Position numbers and translations under genes: made by a program
Shown: positions 49,033 to 57,528 of the stretch, piece after piece
Position numbering within the stretch: the stretch's first letter is position 1
Layout: each line of letters opens with the position of its first letter
From: an uncultured Chlamydiales bacterium
GTDB taxonomy: Bacteria; Chlamydiota; Chlamydiia; Chlamydiales; JAAKFR01
Assembly (NCBI GenBank): GCA_963699155.1
Contig: OY969414.1
Span: 2,219,757-2,283,756, forward strand
Direction of reading: 5' to 3'
Length of the DNA: 64,000 bases
The notes under the pieces: model-generated
Databases searched by the model: none
Told to the model about the DNA's origin: nothing
The model's input: the letters and a program-made list of their open reading frames with translations, nothing else

Positions 49033-50010
49033 ATGAACCGCACCTACGACAAGGAAAAAAAAGTTGCTATTGAAGCAGTTATGCAAGCATCAGCATTAGC
49101 ACGCCAGATGCAAGGGCAACTTGCCGCCCTCGATGTGGTGAATAAGGAGGATCTCTCCCCTGTCACCATCACCGACTTTAGCGTGCAAGCCCTCGTCAAC
49201 CGCAACCTGATGGAGTCCTTTCCTGCCGATGAAATTATGGGAGAAGAAGATTCTCTCTTTTTGCGCAGTCCTGAACATAGCCTCATCCGGAAAAAGGTGA
49301 TCGAACAGCTCTCGAAAATTTATCCAGGGATCTCTGAAAACAGCATTCTCGAGGCGATCGATCGCGGAGGCAGCAAAGGGGGAGCGAAGGGCCGTTTTTG
49401 GGTCCTCGATCCCATCGATGGAACACGCGGATTTATTCAAAATGAACCCTATGCCATAGCTCTGGCTCTGATTGAGGAGGGAAAAGTGGTCCTCGGTCTC
49501 CTCGGATGCCCCCGGTCGATTTTCAAGGAGCATCCCAATGGGGGACTTTTTGTCGCCGCTCATGGAGAAGGAACCTCTTTCACTCCTTATGGATCTACTG
49601 AAACCATTCCCCTCAAAGTGAAGAAGTCGGATAAGCTCATCTACTGTGAAGCCCACACCGCTTCAAAAACCCATTCTCATTCGGAAGCATTCGAGATTGC
49701 CAAAAAAATCCATGCCCATCCCCACCCTTTTCGTCTCGATAGCCAATGCAAATATGCCCATGTGGCCATCGGCGATGCGGCGATCTATCTCCGTATTCCT
49801 CTTTCCGGTGTTCGCTCAGAACAAATTTGGGACCATGCCGCGGGAGCAATCGTCGTTGAGGAAGCAGGAGGAAGGGTGAGCGACATGGAGGGAAAGCCTC
49901 TAGACTTTACTCAGGGAACAGCCCTAATCAAAAATCGAGGAATCGTCGCGACCAATGGCTTTGTCCATGACCAGGTGATCGCAGCCATTCGCGAAGTGAA
50001 TCACTTGTGA
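49033..50010 (+). CDS. cysQ: 3'(2'),5'-bisphosphate nucleotidase (HAL2/CysQ type)
   Basis: SPVTITD, WVLDPIDGTRGF, DSQCKY, IWDHAAG. Confidence 0.9.
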   Translation: MNRTYDKEKKVAIEAVMQASALARQMQGQLAALDVVNKEDLSPVTITDFSVQALVNRNLMESFPADEIMGEEDSLFLRSPEHSLIRKKVIEQLSKIYPGISENSILEAIDRGGSKGGAKGRFWVLDPIDGTRGFIQNEPYAIALALIEEGKVVLGLLGCPRSIFKEHPNGGLFVAAHGEGTSFTPYGSTETIPLKVKKSDKLIYCEAHTASKTHSHSEAFEIAKKIHAHPHPFRLDSQCKYAHVAIGDAAIYLRIPLSGVRSEQIWDHAAGAIVVEEAGGRVSDMEGKPLDFTQGTALIKNRGIVATNGFVHDQVIAAIREVNHL

Positions 50011-51098
50011 AACACCGGAGCGATCGTCCGTTTGCCGATACCCTGTTTGAGATTATGCTGGGCCACTTCCTTGGCAACCTGATGGGTCGGTCGATTTTTC
50101 TCTTCCGCAATGGCGAAAATGGTCGAGAGCACATCGTAGATGCGGTCGACATGCTGGCGCGCGATGTTGGGATCAAACCCCTCGGGCTCTATCTCCACAC
50201 AAACGGCTCTCAGTCCTCCCCCATTGATCACATAATCGGGAGCATAGAGAATGCCTCTTTTGGAGAGGGCATCCCCATCAGCATCTGTGAGTAGCTGGTT
50301 ATTGGCTAAGCCTGCAACCGCTTTGCAGCGCAGTTTGGGAATCGAGGTGGGGTTGAGAATAGCGCCTAAAGCACAAGGCACAAATACATCACAAGAGACA
50401 GAGCCAATTTGATCTGGTGGGACTGCCTGGGCTCCAAATTCCCTCACAGCATGCTCGACAGCTGCCGTGTTGATATCGGAGACAATGAGCTGGGCATCGC
50501 CCCAAAATAGCCACTCAGCAATAGGCATCCCCACAGCGCCAAGACCCTGGATAGCAAAGGTTTTTCCAGCCACTGAATCGCTTCCCCAAATCTTTTTACA
50601 GACTGCCTGAATCCCTCGATAACCTCCGAAAGAGGTGAAGCGCGAAGGATCGCCGCTTGATTTCGAGCGCAAAATGCCCACAGCATAGGGTGTCATCTCT
50701 GCGACTTGGGAGAGATCGTTCACAGTCATCCCAATATCTTCGGCACAGATGTAACCTCCTTCAAAAAAGTTGACCGCTTCTGCAAAAGCATGGAGCAGCT
50801 CTTTGGACTTCGGCCTCCGATTATCAGCAAAAATTACACTTTTACCGCCGCCCGTTCCTGTTTCGGAGACAGCCGCTTTATTCGTCATTCCTTCTGCGAG
50901 CCGTAAGACATCCTTTAACCCCTCTTCAAAAGTGGCATAGGGATAGGCTCGGGTACCACCCAAAGCGGGACCTAGACGGGTATCATGGAGAGCGACGAGC
51001 GCATGGAGACCCTTGCTTTCATTTTTAAATTCGACGACGCGTTCAAAGCCATCAATTTTAAGTTCTTTAACTTTCAGCTCACTAGCTAATTTACCCAT
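50001..51098 (-). CDS. ldh: Leu/Phe/Val dehydrogenase
   Basis: GPALGGTR, GGGKSV, AEDIG, GLGAVG, PDYVINGGG. Confidence 0.92.
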   Translation of the reverse strand: MGKLASELKVKELKIDGFERVVEFKNESKGLHALVALHDTRLGPALGGTRAYPYATFEEGLKDVLRLAEGMTNKAAVSETGTGGGKSVIFADNRRPKSKELLHAFAEAVNFFEGGYICAEDIGMTVNDLSQVAEMTPYAVGILRSKSSGDPSRFTSFGGYRGIQAVCKKIWGSDSVAGKTFAIQGLGAVGMPIAEWLFWGDAQLIVSDINTAAVEHAVREFGAQAVPPDQIGSVSCDVFVPCALGAILNPTSIPKLRCKAVAGLANNQLLTDADGDALSKRGILYAPDYVINGGGLRAVCVEIEPEGFDPNIARQHVDRIYDVLSTIFAIAEEKNRPTHQVAKEVAQHNLKQGIGKRTIAPVFHK

Positions 51099-51216
51099 AA
51101 AACCCTTAACTAATAAAAAAAGAAGGTTATTATTTTTCCATCTAAAGCTTTTAAAGTCAACCTTGACTATAGATCTTCAGATGAGTAGACTACCACATCA
51201 AAAAAAGGAAAAAGCA

Positions 51217-51906
51217 ATGAATGAACAGCCTCTCTGGAATTTGATGAATCTTTTTTGTAGATCTCATCCCTGGCATGGAGTTCCCATTGGAAATGATGCG
51301 TCCGATGAAATTCATTGTTACATCGAGATTGTGCCTACCGACACAGTGAAATTTGAACTTGATAAATCGACAGGTCTACTTAAGGCCGATAGACCTCAAA
51401 AATATTCCAACTACTGTCCCACCCTTTATGGACTGATTCCTCAAACCTATGCTGGCAAGCGGGTAGGCGACTATTGTAGCGAAAAGGCAGGGCGCCGAGG
51501 AATTATGGGTGATAAAGACCCTCTCGACATCTGCATCCTCACTGAAAAGCCGATCTTAAGGGGCGATATTTTAGTGACAGCCGTTCCTATCGGTGGCATC
51601 CGTGCCATCGATGGCAATGAGGCGGACGATAAAATCATCGCTGTGATGAAAGGGGATTTTATCTATGGGCATGTCAAAGATATCAGCGAATGTCCCGAAA
51701 ATTTAATCGAACGGCTCAAACACTATTTCCTTACCTACAAAGAATCGGCCGAAGAGCTCTGCAACAAAAGCAAGAGACGGATGGAAATTATAGAGGTCTA
51801 CAATAAAAAACAGGCGATGGAAGTGATCGCTTTAGCCGAAGCTGATTATGATGAACTCTTCCCTGGCAATCGACGACTTCTTAAAGAGTCTTTGAGTAAG
51901 CTGTGA
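51217..51906 (+). CDS. ppa: inorganic pyrophosphatase
   Basis: HPWHG, YGLIPQT, GDKDPLDI, EADDKI. Confidence 0.95.
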   Translation: MNEQPLWNLMNLFCRSHPWHGVPIGNDASDEIHCYIEIVPTDTVKFELDKSTGLLKADRPQKYSNYCPTLYGLIPQTYAGKRVGDYCSEKAGRRGIMGDKDPLDICILTEKPILRGDILVTAVPIGGIRAIDGNEADDKIIAVMKGDFIYGHVKDISECPENLIERLKHYFLTYKESAEELCNKSKRRMEIIEVYNKKQAMEVIALAEADYDELFPGNRRLLKESLSKL

Positions 51907-52301
51907 ACTGACCTACAGAGCTCTTTAGAAGCGGGGAAGGTCGCCCTTTCTGCTGCCTCTTCCAAATGGCACCAGCGGAAATCGGTGATCTCTTCCTCCT
52001 GAATTTTGACCTCACCACTCACCTCAGCAAGAAAATAGATCACTCTCTTATGGACAAGGTCTTCTTGGTAGCGAAATTGATATCTCTCTTCGAGCTCAGG
52101 AAGATCAAAAAAGCGGCTCACTTGTAAACCAGTCTCCTCCTCCAATTCCCTTCTCGCAGCTTCTTGAGGAGCCTCACCGGGATCAGGATGGCCTTTAGGA
52201 AAGCTCCAGTGTCCCTTTCCATGCTGGACCAACAAAACTTCCCAACCCTTTTTCACATAGCGTACAGGAATAATTCCATAAGAGAGATCAGACCTATGCA
52301 T
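51846..52301 (-). CDS. NUDIX hydrolase (Ap4A hydrolase-like)
   Basis: SYGIIP, HWSFPKGHPDPGE...AARRELEEETG Nudix box. Confidence 0.92.
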   Translation of the reverse strand: MHRSDLSYGIIPVRYVKKGWEVLLVQHGKGHWSFPKGHPDPGEAPQEAARRELEEETGLQVSRFFDLPELEERYQFRYQEDLVHKRVIYFLAEVSGEVKIQEEEITDFRWCHLEEAAERATFPASKELCRSVHSLLKDSLRSRRLPGKSSS

Positions 52302-52336
52302 AGAACCCAGAATATAGCATGGAAGGTTAAAAAGCG

Positions 52337-52706
52337 AAAAAACGTGCGCGGGAATGAATGGCCGGTATACCACGTTTCCAACTTGAGTTCGAGGCTAAGG
52401 CCCCCTGCCCAAAGGTCGATCGCGCATTCTCTGGCCAAGCCACGCTGTGGACTTACAGAGAAGGTATCCCGATGAACAACCGCTGCCGGTAACGGTCCTA
52501 GCAAAAGTTGCTAGCAACGACCCATTCATTACCACTTCTCCCCTCACTCGGGCTACTGAGAAGGAACTTCTGTGAACCTCCAGTAGAGTGTCGCAAGCTG
52601 GGCACTCTTTTAGAGACCGAAGCCTCTTGGGAAACACCGTCCCGAGTGCCCTCATACCGGGTGCTTTTGCCCGAGGGGATGCGGAAGCACGTTCCCGCAT
52701 TCACCT
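52337..52706 (-). ncRNA. unidentified ~370-nt structured RNA candidate
   Basis: GC-rich intergenic island with many helices, a C(UUCG)G hairpin, long-range pairings and a 3' U-run; no credible ORF. Confidence 0.65.
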
Positions 52707-52789
52707 ACTTAGACTCTTTTTTCTCATAAAATGTTCATTTTTAAGATTTTGCTTGAATCAAAAAACTATATTTTTTATATTTTTTCCAT

Positions 52790-54181
52790 ATGTCTTTACC
52801 AATTATTTCGTCTAATAAAACTCAATATAGATCCCAAGTTGAAGAACGAATCAAAAAATTAAAGGATGCCCTACAAAAAAGTACCGAAAAAAGAAACTCA
52901 ACTGACAACAAGATCATCGCAGCATTTGAGCCGCTTTTCACAAAGGTCGGTGGTCATCATTTTAGGCAGAAAGTAGAGCTAGAGCTAGAGAAGGGCCTCA
53001 CCGAAAATTGGGATAAAGTTGTCGCCAAAATTCACAGATCAGCTTTAAAAGCCTATCCCTTTTTCCAAAACCATGACTCTATTGGCTTCTGCACGGGGAC
53101 CCAATCTTCGACTGTTATCGGGATGAAACAATGGTCTAGGAAAAATGGACTGCCTCGCCCTGCTCTAGTTCCCACAGGAAGATTGTTGGCTCACCAAGTT
53201 GTTCCCTTAACAGGTGAATTGGGGATGGGGATTGCTTCAAGTGGAATTAACAGAAAATATCTTTCAGGAACCACTCTCGAAGGTTTTGGGACTGCTTACC
53301 GTTACGCACTACCCCTTACTGTCCATCACTATGTTATGGAAAGAGAGTGGACACGCGTACAGAGTTTCAAGTTAGCTGAATATGATTCCTTAAGATTAGA
53401 AATTGCTTGCCTCCGGCTGATCCATTTCGCGACCGATCCAGAGATTGTTAAACGAGCCAAAGAACACATTGCCGAAAAAATTCTTCCCTCTACTCAGCAA
53501 TTGCCGCTACTATGGCTTCTGCGGTTTCGCCTGCTTGTTAATCCTTACAGCATTAAATTATATGCAGATACTACCTCATCTGAAGAGGAGCTAGCCAATA
53601 TTGCGATAGGGACATTAGTGCTATTCGTAACTAATAGCAGACTGAAAACAGGCATGATCCTGGCCCGAAATCCTGATTCTAAAGAATATAGCATCCTCTA
53701 TTACGAAGGAAGTTTCCAGAGCTGTCTGCGTCGCCATAAGGAAGTCACTCTGTTTAATGGAGATTATGACCCATTCGTCCTAGATTACCCGTCGATAAGC
53801 CCTGAACTTTTAGCGAGTGTGAAAGAATTTTTCCCTCTCACCTATCGTCCTGAGCCGCTTCAGGCCATTTTGGCTCTCTTCGACACAGAAAAAAAAGTTG
53901 AATTGTCTGATGAAGAAAGAGTACTTCTCCAGGATCCATTCCCCATTGTTTGGGCAGCGCACCAAGAATTCAATGACGCCCAAGTTACTTCATCGTATTA
54001 CCAAATTGAGCGAGCGGCTGGAAAGGAGCTTCAAGTGGGAACCGATCTCACCTACCTCTTTACCAAAGAGCGTCGCATTCCCCAAATGCGTCAGTGGCTC
54101 CTCCATCAAGAGTGCTCTTCCGTCAAAGTCATGAGCTTCAGCTCTGGTTTATTTATCTCTGCCATGCACTTGCCATCCTAG
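52790..54181 (+). CDS. hypothetical protein (accessory, candidate effector)
   Basis: 463-aa ORF, Ser-rich start, no recognisable domain. Confidence 0.75.
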   Translation: MSLPIISSNKTQYRSQVEERIKKLKDALQKSTEKRNSTDNKIIAAFEPLFTKVGGHHFRQKVELELEKGLTENWDKVVAKIHRSALKAYPFFQNHDSIGFCTGTQSSTVIGMKQWSRKNGLPRPALVPTGRLLAHQVVPLTGELGMGIASSGINRKYLSGTTLEGFGTAYRYALPLTVHHYVMEREWTRVQSFKLAEYDSLRLEIACLRLIHFATDPEIVKRAKEHIAEKILPSTQQLPLLWLLRFRLLVNPYSIKLYADTTSSEEELANIAIGTLVLFVTNSRLKTGMILARNPDSKEYSILYYEGSFQSCLRRHKEVTLFNGDYDPFVLDYPSISPELLASVKEFFPLTYRPEPLQAILALFDTEKKVELSDEERVLLQDPFPIVWAAHQEFNDAQVTSSYYQIERAAGKELQVGTDLTYLFTKERRIPQMRQWLLHQECSSVKVMSFSSGLFISAMHLPS

Positions 54182-54231
54182 GGTCTCAGGAAGGAAAGAT
54201 ATGAAAGATCGCAAGGTCTGAGTACAAAATC

Positions 54232-54577
54232 GGGTGGGAGAGGGGTTCAAGGGGAGGGGGGCGAGCGCCCCGTTCGCAGGCAGGAGTCGCGAGGCGTTAC
54301 CAACATAACATGAAAACAGGAAGAGTTTTACTGCCTCAGGGTTTAACCAGCACCAGGTAGTGCGGGGCCGCGCCGTAGGCGCCCAAGGCCGCAGATTGCA
54401 AAGCCAGATCGCTTCCGGAGCTGAGCCGAAAGGCGTGGAGGGTAGTGCTGTGTACAGCCCCCCGTTCGCAGGCAGGAGTGGCGAGGCATTACTCACGCAA
54501 GATGTAACCTGAGATACTTTCACCGCCTCAGGGTTTAACCAGCACCAGGCAGTGCGGGACCGCGCCGTAGGCGCCCA
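54232..54577 (+). repeat. G-rich arm followed by two ~118-nt direct copies (period 192) of a structured element
   Basis: ccccgttcgcaggcaggagt...ctcagggtttaaccagcaccagg.agtgcggg.ccgcgccgtaggcgccca at 54268-54385 and 54460-54577. Confidence 0.85.
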
Positions 54578-54626
54578 GCGAGGAAGCGATATGGCAAAGC
54601 AAGATGCGGCTCAAGGGGTCGCAGGG

Positions 54627-55994
54627 TAATGCCGTCAAGTTAAGGAAATTTCTATTAGTTTATAAAAAAGTTCATGGCATCTTAGCCCTTATTCATTACC
54701 ACACGAAAAGGAGATGCCATGAAGACGTTCGAGATAGTCTGTAAAAGAATAAATCATCTCATATTGGCCCCTTCCTTTAAAGAGAGATTTCGATCCCGTC
54801 CCGAGGATTTTACTCGCATGCGTTGTCTTTCTTTTGAGCTTATTGTTTTTTCGATTCTCGATCTTGCCAAAAAATGCCTTCAGATTACTTTGAATGAATT
54901 GTTTACTGGAATAGGTCTTAACGCTGTTACAAAATAGGCTTTTTCTCTCTCAAGGCATAAGGTTACGTGGGAGGCTTTCAAAGTATTACACGAAGAGGTA
55001 GTGAATACTTTTTATAGCTCATCCCCTTACAGGCTTTTGTGGGGCAAATATCTAGTCATAGCAATGGATGGAAGCTCCATAACACTCTCTAATTCTAGCG
55101 ATTTAATTGACTATTTTGGAAAGGTCATCAATCAATTTTCAGAATGCTCCATGGGAAGAATTTCGCTTCTTTTTGATGTGCTGAATAAAATTACACTCGA
55201 CGTGCGAATTGTTCCCTGCGAATCTTCAGAAAAAGTCATGGCAATCGAGCATTTGCAGTGGCTTGCTGAGTTTAAGAGAAAGGTGAAGAAAAAGATCGTT
55301 CTTATTTTTGATAGAGGCTATCCATGCACCGGAATTTTTCTACTTCTTCAAAAGCATGGAATTGACTTTGTTTGTAGAGCGCAGTCTAAGGTGAACGGTG
55401 GGCTTATAAGTCAATTGGGCTCACAGAAAGATGGACAAGTGGTAGCAAAGCCAAATAGGGGAAACAAAAAGAAAATACTCAAAACATGGTTTCGGGAAGA
55501 AAAATTGACAAACGAGAGATCAGTATTGAGATGCGTTCGTACATCCAAAAAAGATATTTATTTAACTTCGCTAAAAAAGATAAAGCCTAAACAAGTAAAG
55601 AACTTATATTTAAAAAGATGGGGAATAGAACTTGACTATCGAACAATAAAAGCTGACACATTACTGGAAAACTTTAGTGGGCGGAAGCCAAACACCATTT
55701 TTCAAGAGATCTATGCAACAGTGATAATTCAAAACCTGGCAAGAATACTTGAGTTCGATCTCAGTAAGAGGTGTGCAAAAGGGCGATTCCCTAATCATCG
55801 AGAAGTTTTGGGAATAATAAGACTAGTTTTAAGGAATATGCATCTGAAAAAAAAGCCCTTGGTAGATATTTTGAGGCAAATAAAGATAAATTGGGAAAGA
55901 GAAAGGAAGGGAAGAAAATGTCCTAGGCCTATAGCTGATTATAGGCTCAAGACTAGGTTTACAAGGCTTTGTTATGCTTAACTTGACGGCATTA
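54627..55994 (+). mobile_element. IS4-family insertion sequence
   Basis: Perfect 18-bp TIR taatgccgtcaagttaag; 10-bp target duplication ggtcgcaggg/ggtcgcgggg (9/10); AT-rich interior. Confidence 0.93.
54719..55981 (+). pseudogene. IS4 transposase with in-frame TAG at 54935-54937
   Basis: The two track ORFs share a frame (VTK*AFSLSRHK); IAMDGS, IFDRGY, YLKRWGIELDYRTIK (YREK motif). Confidence 0.9.
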
Positions 55995-56271: not shown

Positions 56272-57528
56272 CTATTTGCGGAAAGGGGCGAAGATGATGG
56301 AGGAGTTGTGGCCGCCGAAGCCGAAGGAGTTGGAGAGGGCAACATCGATGGTGTGTGCTTTGGCTGTGTGGGCGATGGGGTCGATGTCGCGAAGGATGGG
56401 TTCGGGGTCATCGAGGTTGATGGTGGGGTGGAGTTTTCCTGTTTTGATGGCCATGATGGTGGCGATCGCTTCGATACCACCTGCAGCACCTAGACAGTGG
56501 CCCGTCATCGATTTGGTGGCATTCATTTTGATCTTCTTGGTGAGAGGTCCAAAGACTGTGTGGATGGCTTCGACCTCTGCCGTATCGCCGAGAGGTGTGG
56601 AGGTGGCGTGGGCATTGATGTAATTGATGCGCTCTTTGGAAACTCCTGCATCTGCCAAAGCCATTTCGATACATTGGGAAATCCCACGGCCATCTTGGCG
56701 GGGAGCTGTCATGTGGTAGGCATCGCAGCTGACGGCTCCGCCGAGATATTCACAGAGAATCGGTGCGCCGCGCGCCAGAGCGTGCTCCAAACTTTCTAAG
56801 ACGAGGACGCCCGAACCCTCACCCATTACAAAACCATCACGGCCCCTATCCCAAGGGCGTGAAGCCTTTTCGGAGGCATCGTTGCGCTCTGAAAGCGCTC
56901 CATTGGCCACAAAGCCGGCCAAACCGACAGGATAGACAGCAGCCTCAGCGCCGCCCGCGATCATGAGATCGGCATGACCCATCCGAATGTGGTTGGCTGC
57001 AGCTGTAATACTAAAATTGGCTGTCGCGCAAGCAGTCGAAATAGAGTAGTTAGGACCCATAAAGTCGAGATCGATCGCCAGAAGAGCGCCAGCCATATTG
57101 GTAATGATATAAGGAATAAAGAAGGGAGTCAGTCGCTTATAGCCCTTTTCACTGAGGGTTGTAGTGCCCTCGTAAAAGGTACGCAAGCCTCCCATCCCCG
57201 AGCCAACCAGCACCCCACAACGCGTTTTATCAAAGCTTGCGAGTAACTCCGGTGTGATCTGAGCCATCTCTAGCGCCCTCTTGCCAGCCACAATCGCATA
57301 GCGAATAAAGGGATCGATCCGGCGATCTTGTTTGCGGTCGATGTAGGCGCTGGCATCAAAATCGGGAACGCTGGCAGCAAATCGTGTGGGATAATCTTCG
57401 CAGGGAAAATGGGTAATCGGCCTTACACCACTTTTTCCGGCCAAAAGAGCGTTATAAAATTCATCGACATCGTTTCCAAAACAAGAAACAATCCCCATTC
57501 CTGTGACAACGATTCGTTTTTTACTCAT
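56272..57528 (-). CDS. fabF: beta-ketoacyl-ACP synthase II
   Basis: STACAT, NAHATST, GHCLGAAG, SNSFGFGGHN. Confidence 0.97.
   Translation of the reverse strand: MSKKRIVVTGMGIVSCFGNDVDEFYNALLAGKSGVRPITHFPCEDYPTRFAASVPDFDASAYIDRKQDRRIDPFIRYAIVAGKRALEMAQITPELLASFDKTRCGVLVGSGMGGLRTFYEGTTTLSEKGYKRLTPFFIPYIITNMAGALLAIDLDFMGPNYSISTACATANFSITAAANHIRMGHADLMIAGGAEAAVYPVGLAGFVANGALSERNDASEKASRPWDRGRDGFVMGEGSGVLVLESLEHALARGAPILCEYLGGAVSCDAYHMTAPRQDGRGISQCIEMALADAGVSKERINYINAHATSTPLGDTAEVEAIHTVFGPLTKKIKMNATKSMTGHCLGAAGGIEAIATIMAIKTGKLHPTINLDDPEPILRDIDPIAHTAKAHTIDVALSNSFGFGGHNSSIIFAPFRK

Follow-up and report, generated by a model that had tools for sequence, protein, structure and literature searches.

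A large structured RNA in one chlamydial family and its candidate ECF sigma factor

To our knowledge, few large structured RNAs without an assigned function are known from bacteria, and most of those studied in depth belong to Gram-positive phyla. The raiA motif RNA (ModT) resembles the RNA reported here: it comes from a single locus, is abundant and stable, measures 200-260 nt, contains pseudoknots and variable peripheral stems, has its own promoter and acts in trans, and its biochemistry is unknown (PMC12968392, PMC11706538). OLE RNA is likewise made from its own promoter; it is very stable, stress-induced and multi-stemmed, and serves as a model of a scaffold RNA (PMC3413148). On the side of transcription the closest described system is E. 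coli sigmaE (RpoE), which uses a -35 element of GAAC plus a T-tract and a GTC-type -10 element (PMC1540707).

In our literature search we found no description of this RNA. The main text of preprint 10.64898/2026.10.21.760802 does not contain 'Chlamyd', and its supplements could hold the motif. In the retrieved portions of PMC8632094 (text and supplement search) Chlamydia pecorum was the only chlamydia analysed, and the retrieved portion of PMC11109978 held 0 occurrences of 'chlamydiae'. A family of large structured RNAs tied to a lineage-specific ECF sigma factor is apparently undescribed. Its novelty lies in family and architecture; OLE and raiA are analogues in the sense that they too are large RNAs of unknown function. 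The RNA comes from obligate intracellular chlamydiae, whose reduced genomes retain little that is dispensable, and its restriction to one family limits its general impact.

The RNA gene and its fold

The RNA gene lies in a window of 64,000 nt, the whole stretch of DNA that was analysed (G000:C1:2219757-2283756), from a closed chlamydial genome of 2.4 Mb (G000, the source genome; Table 1). Its G+C content is 56%, compared to 19% and 37% in its flanks. An earlier note on this DNA had proposed a large structured RNA here and had leaned towards the minus strand; the promoter upstream and the U-run downstream confirm the minus strand. The homologues have lengths of 216-372 nt that fall into all three frames, and their longest stop-free stretch was 33-101 aa. 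There is no conserved reading frame, and the RNA is non-coding.

Table 1. Features of the RNA locus and of the candidate sigma factor gene (positions in the window unless a contig is named)
Feature	Position	Strand	Remarks
Structured ncRNA gene	52337..52702	-	~365 nt; start predicted from the promoter, end from the U-run
-35 element TGAACATT, then T-tract (ECF/RpoE type)	52730..52737	-	best-scoring site in G000
-10 element GTCTAA	52709..52714	-	upstream of all copies examined
P1 hairpin	52680..52699	-	89% paired; 3/5 pairs with double changes
Pseudoknot 5′ strand, 7-nt P1 loop	52693-52687	-	
Pseudoknot clasp 3′ strand GCACGUU	52341..52347	-	96% paired; leads directly into U-run
Arm A	52539..52679	-	closed by P2 (52679-73/52545-39); much reduced in several homologues
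Arm A contents			P3; P4 (52651-44/52607-00); conserved hairpin GGGA-CGRUGUU-UCCC (52643-29)
Arm A variable hairpins	52627-12 and 52586-53	-	
Arm B	52348..52535	-	closed by P5 (52535-18/52365-48)
Arm B junction			P5, P6 (52514-52498), P7 (52494-85/52382-73); conserved GAYCG and ACGCGYAUAC strands
Arm B past P7			long hairpin 52462-27; P10 with (U/C)CUUA loop 52405-52391
U-run 3′ of the RNA	52337-52342	-	
NUDIX hydrolase gene, downstream neighbour	51846..52301	-	Pfam PF00293
463-aa protein gene	52790-54181	+	no Pfam or NCBIfam match
DDE_Tnp_1 transposase gene	55001-55981	+	
fabF-like gene, ancestral upstream neighbour	56272..57528	-	
Stand-alone ECF sigma gene	G000:C1:434594-435121 (L049:1432-1962)		176 aa

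Two soil metatranscriptome runs from two studies contain the sequence; the runs were located with that very sequence as query, and their contigs carry no strand, ends or level. On window positions 50000-55000 the contigs matched only 52359-52691 (333 nt, 0 mismatches) and 52466-52670 (205 nt). A third, separate contig of 326 nt is a relative, aligned from its 2nd base. The confinement of the contigs to the predicted gene is consistent with a discrete and stable RNA. The proposal of a large structured RNA stands on covariation, single-copy vertical inheritance and the RNA-library contigs. We consider it almost certain that this is a real, conserved structured RNA.

Rfam 15 covariance models gave five matches at E≤10 on 2 kb around the locus, none of them over the RNA, and on seven homologous loci only sub-threshold miRNA-hairpin matches were found (best 36 bits against cut-offs of 69-195). 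This agrees with the first reading, which could not match the RNA to a riboswitch. RNase P, tmRNA and SRP RNA, which had been set aside for want of their signatures, are similar in size and likewise have ends protected by pairing, but each has its own gene elsewhere in G000 (copies above cut-off at C1:806666, C1:1340142 and C1:1496177, respectively). The tmRNA match (G000:C1:1340142-1340596) spans 455 nt and exceeds the 374-position model.

On its own, the G000 sequence has a fold only slightly better than those of its shuffles (z -1.6 for the minus and -1.8 for the plus strand), and the structural case therefore rests on the homologues. To that end we used alignment A7, a plain MAFFT alignment of 33 sequences that was not fitted to the structure. 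On it, 90.5% of the 1226 cells of the named 38-pair structure were paired, with double-sided changes at 27/38 pairs. In a shuffle test, which ignores the relatedness of the sequences, 0/500 shuffles reached this structure on all five measures, and slid controls gave 36-55%. Covariation, which the earlier note had asked to be checked, was also scored with a G-test against a tree-based null on the 30 sequences common to both model-fitted alignments: two pairs reached E≤0.05, both of them in P10, and at least 90% Watson-Crick or G-U pairing was seen in 8 of the top 12. The core pairs of the pseudoknot are nearly invariant and, because they barely vary, are absent from the top 45 pairs. Moreover, RNAalifold on A7 returned three elements unprompted: the 5′ loop paired with the 3′ end, P7 as a long helix, and the hairpin P10.

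From 5′ to 3′ the RNA consists of the P1 hairpin, arm A, a short purine linker, arm B, the clasp strand that pairs into the P1 loop, and U residues; the layout of both arms draws, among other evidence, on per-sequence folds of 18 sequences. A helix of 6 bp on a loop of 7 nt would be compatible with H-type geometry. Support within the pseudoknot comes from G021 and G008, in which a C-G pair is replaced by U-A, and from G-C/A-U/G-U exchange at the outer pair. Two minor elements are less clear: the P8 hairpin of model R2 competes with a longer hairpin, and P5c is 66% paired with 0 double changes.

All complementary segments that had been pointed out in this sequence are present (52341-47/52687-93, 52348-54/52692-98, 52350-61/52522-33, 52362-68/52654-60, 52545-52/52641-48, 52427-33/52456-62 and 52493-504/52508-19), and the UUCG hairpin 52612-27 appears in the computed fold. 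The "multi-pseudoknot" RNA that was built on them is reduced to a single pseudoknot on A7. This is 52341-47/52687-93, whose five core pairs are 97-100% paired, with the C-G to U-A double change in 2/33 sequences. Pairing at 52348-54/52692-98 is uneven (27-97% depending on the column), and P1 and P5, which are conserved, compete with it, while 52362-68/52654-60 (13-53%) and 52545-52/52641-48 (13-84%) are not conserved. Three further elements, 52353-61/52522-30 (in P5), 52427-33/52456-62 and 52498-514, do exist as helices in homologues, but vary in length and align in poor register. Nor is the idea of an RNA that switches between mutually exclusive pairings supported, as no conserved pair of exclusive folds was seen and three of the proposed long-range pairings are private to this genome. 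We also rejected additional pseudoknots between GGA and the UCUU loop, GAYC and GRUC, and UAAG and CUUA, for which near-invariant strands or local helices are the better explanation.

The distribution of conserved nucleotides bears on whether the RNA is a base-pairing regulatory sRNA within a large protective frame. ECF sigma factors drive base-pairing sRNAs in other bacteria, which speaks for such a role. However, the conserved nucleotides lie mostly in helices or short junction strands and no long conserved single-stranded seed is visible, which makes this role quite unlikely.

Distribution and genomic neighbourhood

We sampled 29 genomes from 17 genera of the chlamydial family and found the RNA in 25, with one match per genome. 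BLAST with the minus strand detected it in 7/28 family genomes and in 0/32 genomes of other families. Searches with two domain models built from eight sequences, which were used in place of a full-length model, recovered it in 21/29 genomes and in addition in G021, and each of the weak matches, once inspected, proved to be a full homologue. G010 and a diverged copy in G008 were recognised by synteny, and the promoter pattern added G025. All 11 matches of a metagenome scan were true homologues; two of them duplicated G012 and G014 and were excluded. Four family genomes yielded no copy of the RNA: G007 (61% complete), G020 (contig break at the locus), G019 (98% complete) and G026 (96%, one contig), where fabF abuts the NUDIX gene. 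A weak match of domain model R3 in G019 (E 0.15) sits in apparent coding sequence and was rejected.

Outside the family we found no copy with model R2 (135 genomes, strict filters, 16 candidates scored per genome), with model R3 (38 genomes) or with a 3′ pattern (283 genomes), and models R1 and R2 reached at best 13.6 bits on 27 NUDIX loci of other families. A homologue as diverged as that of G008, which the models also missed, could exist outside the family. A contig scan with the NUDIX protein gave 31 loci, one of them chlamydial.

Several natural variants depart from the full layout. In G008 the clasp is kept and the core motifs of arm B are lost, so that at least one lineage can dispense with these motifs. 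A tandem mini-copy of ~110 nt was seen 3′ of the full RNA at L172:268-384 (minus strand). Its P1 sequence, P2 and P5 are still there, as are the clasp and, at the end, a U10 tail; with the interiors of both arms gone, it amounts to the clasp and two plain hairpins ahead of the tail. It folds at z -4.8, and its pseudoknot-free fold has a 5′-3′ helix instead of P1. Furthermore, the short homologues of G011, G013 and G015 have 50-68 nt between promoter and P1, with a 5′ extension that carries its own hairpin-like sequence. With lengths from ~110 to 372 nt, the variants define a minimal core for structure work.

These variants also bear on the invariant junction in which G-A-Y-C-G lies opposite A-C-G-C-G-Y-A-U, and which might form the pocket of a ribozyme or ligand binder. 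Invariant unpaired nucleotides do cluster at this one junction, and the size and complexity of the RNA are within the ribozyme range. Yet there was no Rfam ribozyme or riboswitch match, G008 and the L172 mini-copy are without the junction core, and we found no conserved substrate or adjacent enzyme, so that a catalytic or ligand-binding function seems unlikely.

The genes around the locus follow the order fabF - NUDIX - pyrophosphatase - Glu/Leu dehydrogenase - inositol monophosphatase family - acyltransferase, which presumably resembles that of Chlamydia and is one ground for placing the genome in the chlamydiae; from its sequence motifs we take the upstream gene to be fabF. The 3′ end of fabF is at most 900 nt upstream of the RNA in 30/34 loci, and in G000 the 463-aa orphan gene and the DDE transposase separate the two. 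In other families fabF ends at most 182 nt from the NUDIX gene with no RNA between them (26/27 loci), which indicates that the RNA gene was inserted there in the ancestor of the family.

This insertion, one tandem partial duplicate (L172) and the DDE transposase 2.3 kb away in the window would suit an RNA left by, or domesticated from, a mobile element that entered between fabF and NUDIX in the family's ancestor. However, there is one copy per genome at one syntenic site, strong compensatory change is seen and no cognate ORF was found. Viral contigs gave no true match either, one chance match being obtained with the first of two patterns and none with the second. A mobile origin of this kind is therefore highly improbable. 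The same fixed synteny and single match per genome dispose of a dispersed repeat, for which the earlier note had asked to look. A separate intergenic repeat family, REP- or MITE-like, was observed in G000:C1 near 84054, 193063-194028, 520239 and 2260401; its 13-nt core was counted 21 times, and 42 copies of a related 10-nt word are present.

The position of the NUDIX gene further raises the question of whether the clasp and U-run act in cis, as a terminator that gates read-through into this gene in the manner of an attenuator or riboswitch. Across 34 loci the NUDIX gene starts at most 135 nt from the RNA in 9, lies at 216-1124 nt in 7 and is unseen in the available sequence of 18, several of which are short. 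The U-run follows the pseudoknot directly, with no hairpin between, in 16 of the 34, and 11 of the other 18 have a separate hairpin terminator. Short distance and direct U-run are what an attenuator would show, but in most loci other genes or separate hairpin terminators intervene, and NUDIX and fabF are contiguous without the RNA in the 26/27 loci above and in G026, so that the RNA looks inserted. In addition, no conserved antiterminator was seen and the RNA-library contigs end within the RNA. Attenuation is thus very unlikely, and the RNA, which does not hold a consistent position 5′ of related genes, is probably not a NUDIX riboswitch. The regulatory link to NUDIX that had been suggested is weak, and the gene probably lies outside the RNA's function. 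Ahead of it, at 52311-52319, a TGCTATATT motif forms a putative -10 element.

Promoter and sigma factor

The RNA has an ECF-type promoter of its own (52709-52737), which was absent from the earlier note. The promoter (TGAACATTT-N-GTCTAA) stands ahead of 33/33 copies examined, as TGAACATT-N13/14-(T/C)GTCTAA or a close variant, 3-12 nt upstream of the RNA and 50-68 nt upstream in the three copies with a 5′ extension. Nine of these copies were picked by the promoter pattern and 24 independently of it. The marks of ECF dependence, GAAC plus T-tract at -35 and GTC at -10, are conserved in all 33, and a T-tract following the -35 element has been described for ECF promoters (PMC5758882; PMC1540707). 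Against this reading, TGAACA-N17-TCTAAN could equally pass for a sigma66 promoter of the weak kind.

In a scan of G000 the site at the RNA scored 24.9 bits and the next listed 16.2. Weaker sites showed no excess (181 over threshold vs 206 in the reversed-genome control). Most family genomes have one promoter site, at the RNA, and second intergenic sites were seen in G027 and G001. In G027 (L118:1310-1529, minus strand) the promoter precedes a small ORF that has a good ribosome-binding site and is followed by the gene for a cysteine-rich protein of 179 aa without Pfam match; in G001 (L185:1501-1781) it lies directly ahead of khpA. We rejected khpA as a regulon member, since it has the promoter in 1/21 family genomes (G001), and the lead to a partner protein of the RNA failed with it; no partner was found. 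khpA, whose product together with KhpB is associated with the raiA motif RNA, occurs in 58/61 genomes inside and outside the family, and most family genomes have two KhpA-like genes. Matches of the promoter pattern outside the family (3/283) were also discarded: the eight copies in G210 are antisense in a reverse-transcriptase ORF and the other two look coding. G210 (L126-L134 except L127) carries eight near-identical copies of this 441-aa ORF, which is presumably group II intron-like.

G000 encodes three sigma factors: sigma66, a FliA-like sigma and the 176-aa ECF sigma. The latter was found in 22/28 relatives within the family vs 0/32 genomes from other families. It lies between genes that we take to be enolase and rsgA, with an rRNA-methylase-like gene as a further recurrent neighbour, and no anti-sigma candidate was found beside it in 23 loci. 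A FliA/sigma28 gene was also observed in an environmental chlamydia (L050:1435-2193), downstream of genes that presumably are FlhA- and FlhF-like. In the available portion of a 2015 survey of Chlamydiae, sigma28 is described as lost from environmental chlamydiae, only sigma66, sigma54 and sigma28 are listed, and ECF or RpoE is mentioned 0 times (PMC4652624). Given this three-sigma survey, the ECF sigma is itself a surprise.

Across the 29 family genomes both RNA and ECF sigma are present in 21, neither in 2, and 6 are discordant. The RNA occurs without a detected ECF sigma in G001 (74% complete), G006 (85%), G011 (91%, 150 contigs) and G013 (59%), and the sigma without the RNA in the incomplete G007 and in G020, with its contig break. 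The nearly complete G019 and G026 lack both and carry only the two longer sigmas, whereas other members of their two genera have both; co-loss thus rests on two genomes.

Regions 2.3 and 4.2 of the ECF sigma can be aligned with those of E. coli sigmaE. On the GGAAC element of sigmaE, R171 is assigned to the C and S172 to the G of GAAC, and R176 to the preceding G (PMC1540707). In the 20 ECF sigmas that were parsed from the 23 loci, the equivalents of R171 and S172 are kept in 20/20 and that of R176 in 0/20; with T instead of G at the first -35 position, the residues fit TGAAC. A cognate sigma with matching recognition residues therefore co-occurs with the RNA, and it is likely that the RNA is transcribed by the ECF sigma of the family. 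As a candidate dedicated sigma it offers a handle for reconstituting RNA induction, either in vitro or in E. coli.

The missing protein anti-sigma could be replaced by the RNA itself, which would bind its own ECF sigma or the holoenzyme and shut it off, following a 6S-like logic with a different fold. This would account for the lack of an anti-sigma gene at the 23 loci and for the RNA as nearly the sole consensus promoter target; the P10 loop with its flank (GUCUUAA...UGAAC) resembles the -10 and -35 words, and no 6S RNA was found in G000. However, this resemblance was noticed post hoc and runs in reversed order, the P10 loop varies (UCUUC, ACUUA, GCUUA) without tracking promoter variants, and the fold is unlike the 6S rod. 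The 6S search, moreover, recovered 6S in just 5/14 control genomes. Such an RNA anti-sigma or decoy is improbable.

Proposed role and comparison with known systems

The role that we prefer, and hold tentatively as a whole, is that of a stable, end-clasped scaffold RNA that acts in trans as the main output of the family's ECF sigma. The sigma, lacking an anti-sigma neighbour, would be activated in a putative stress or late/extracellular stage and would then fire the RNA promoter almost alone. P1 would form first, followed by folding of the two arms, after which the last 7 nt would pair into the P1 loop. The resulting H-type clasp might hide both RNA ends from exonucleases, and where the U-run follows at once, as in 16/34 copies, it may also be the terminator helix. 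The long-lived RNA would then engage protein partners at the conserved junctions of arms A and B, acting as their scaffold or sponge as has been proposed for the OLE and raiA RNAs, and would help the cells to persist. A wider reading, possible but doubtful, is a two-gene module new to biology, in which an anti-sigma-less chlamydial ECF sigma has a near-sole RNA product that executes the response. This RNA would either feed back on the sigma, as an RNA anti-sigma, or set a dormant state in these intracellular bacteria, as a ribozyme or scaffold.

Compared to the described systems, the transcription unit differs from that of E. coli sigmaE by the lack of an anti-sigma neighbour, the replaced R176, a first -35 position that is T where sigmaE has G, and a regulon that apparently comprises about one gene. 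6S RNA (RF00013) shares the possible tie of a stable RNA to a sigma factor, but is an unbranched rod with a central bubble, whereas the chlamydial RNA is branched and pseudoknotted and has no such long irregular hairpin; it is not a 6S RNA. The gene for OapA is adjacent to the OLE RNA gene; the chlamydial RNA has no partner gene as neighbour and no Rfam match. OLE RNA, with OapA as its partner protein, is also larger (~600 nt) and comes from Bacillota (PMC3413148). The raiA RNA is found in Bacillota and Actinomycetota, has a sigmaA promoter, is closed by a long 5′-3′ P1 and contains two internal pseudoknots (PMC12968392, PMC11706538). In the chlamydial RNA, by contrast, a 5′ hairpin loop takes up the 3′ end, two arms are nested, the promoter is of the ECF type and there is no Rfam match; the extended 5′-3′ P1 and the core P3a-P3b-P4-PK1-PK2 of raiA (architecture per PMC12968392) are not found, and we rejected membership. 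The resemblance to raiA/ModT and OLE is one of lifestyle, not of fold.
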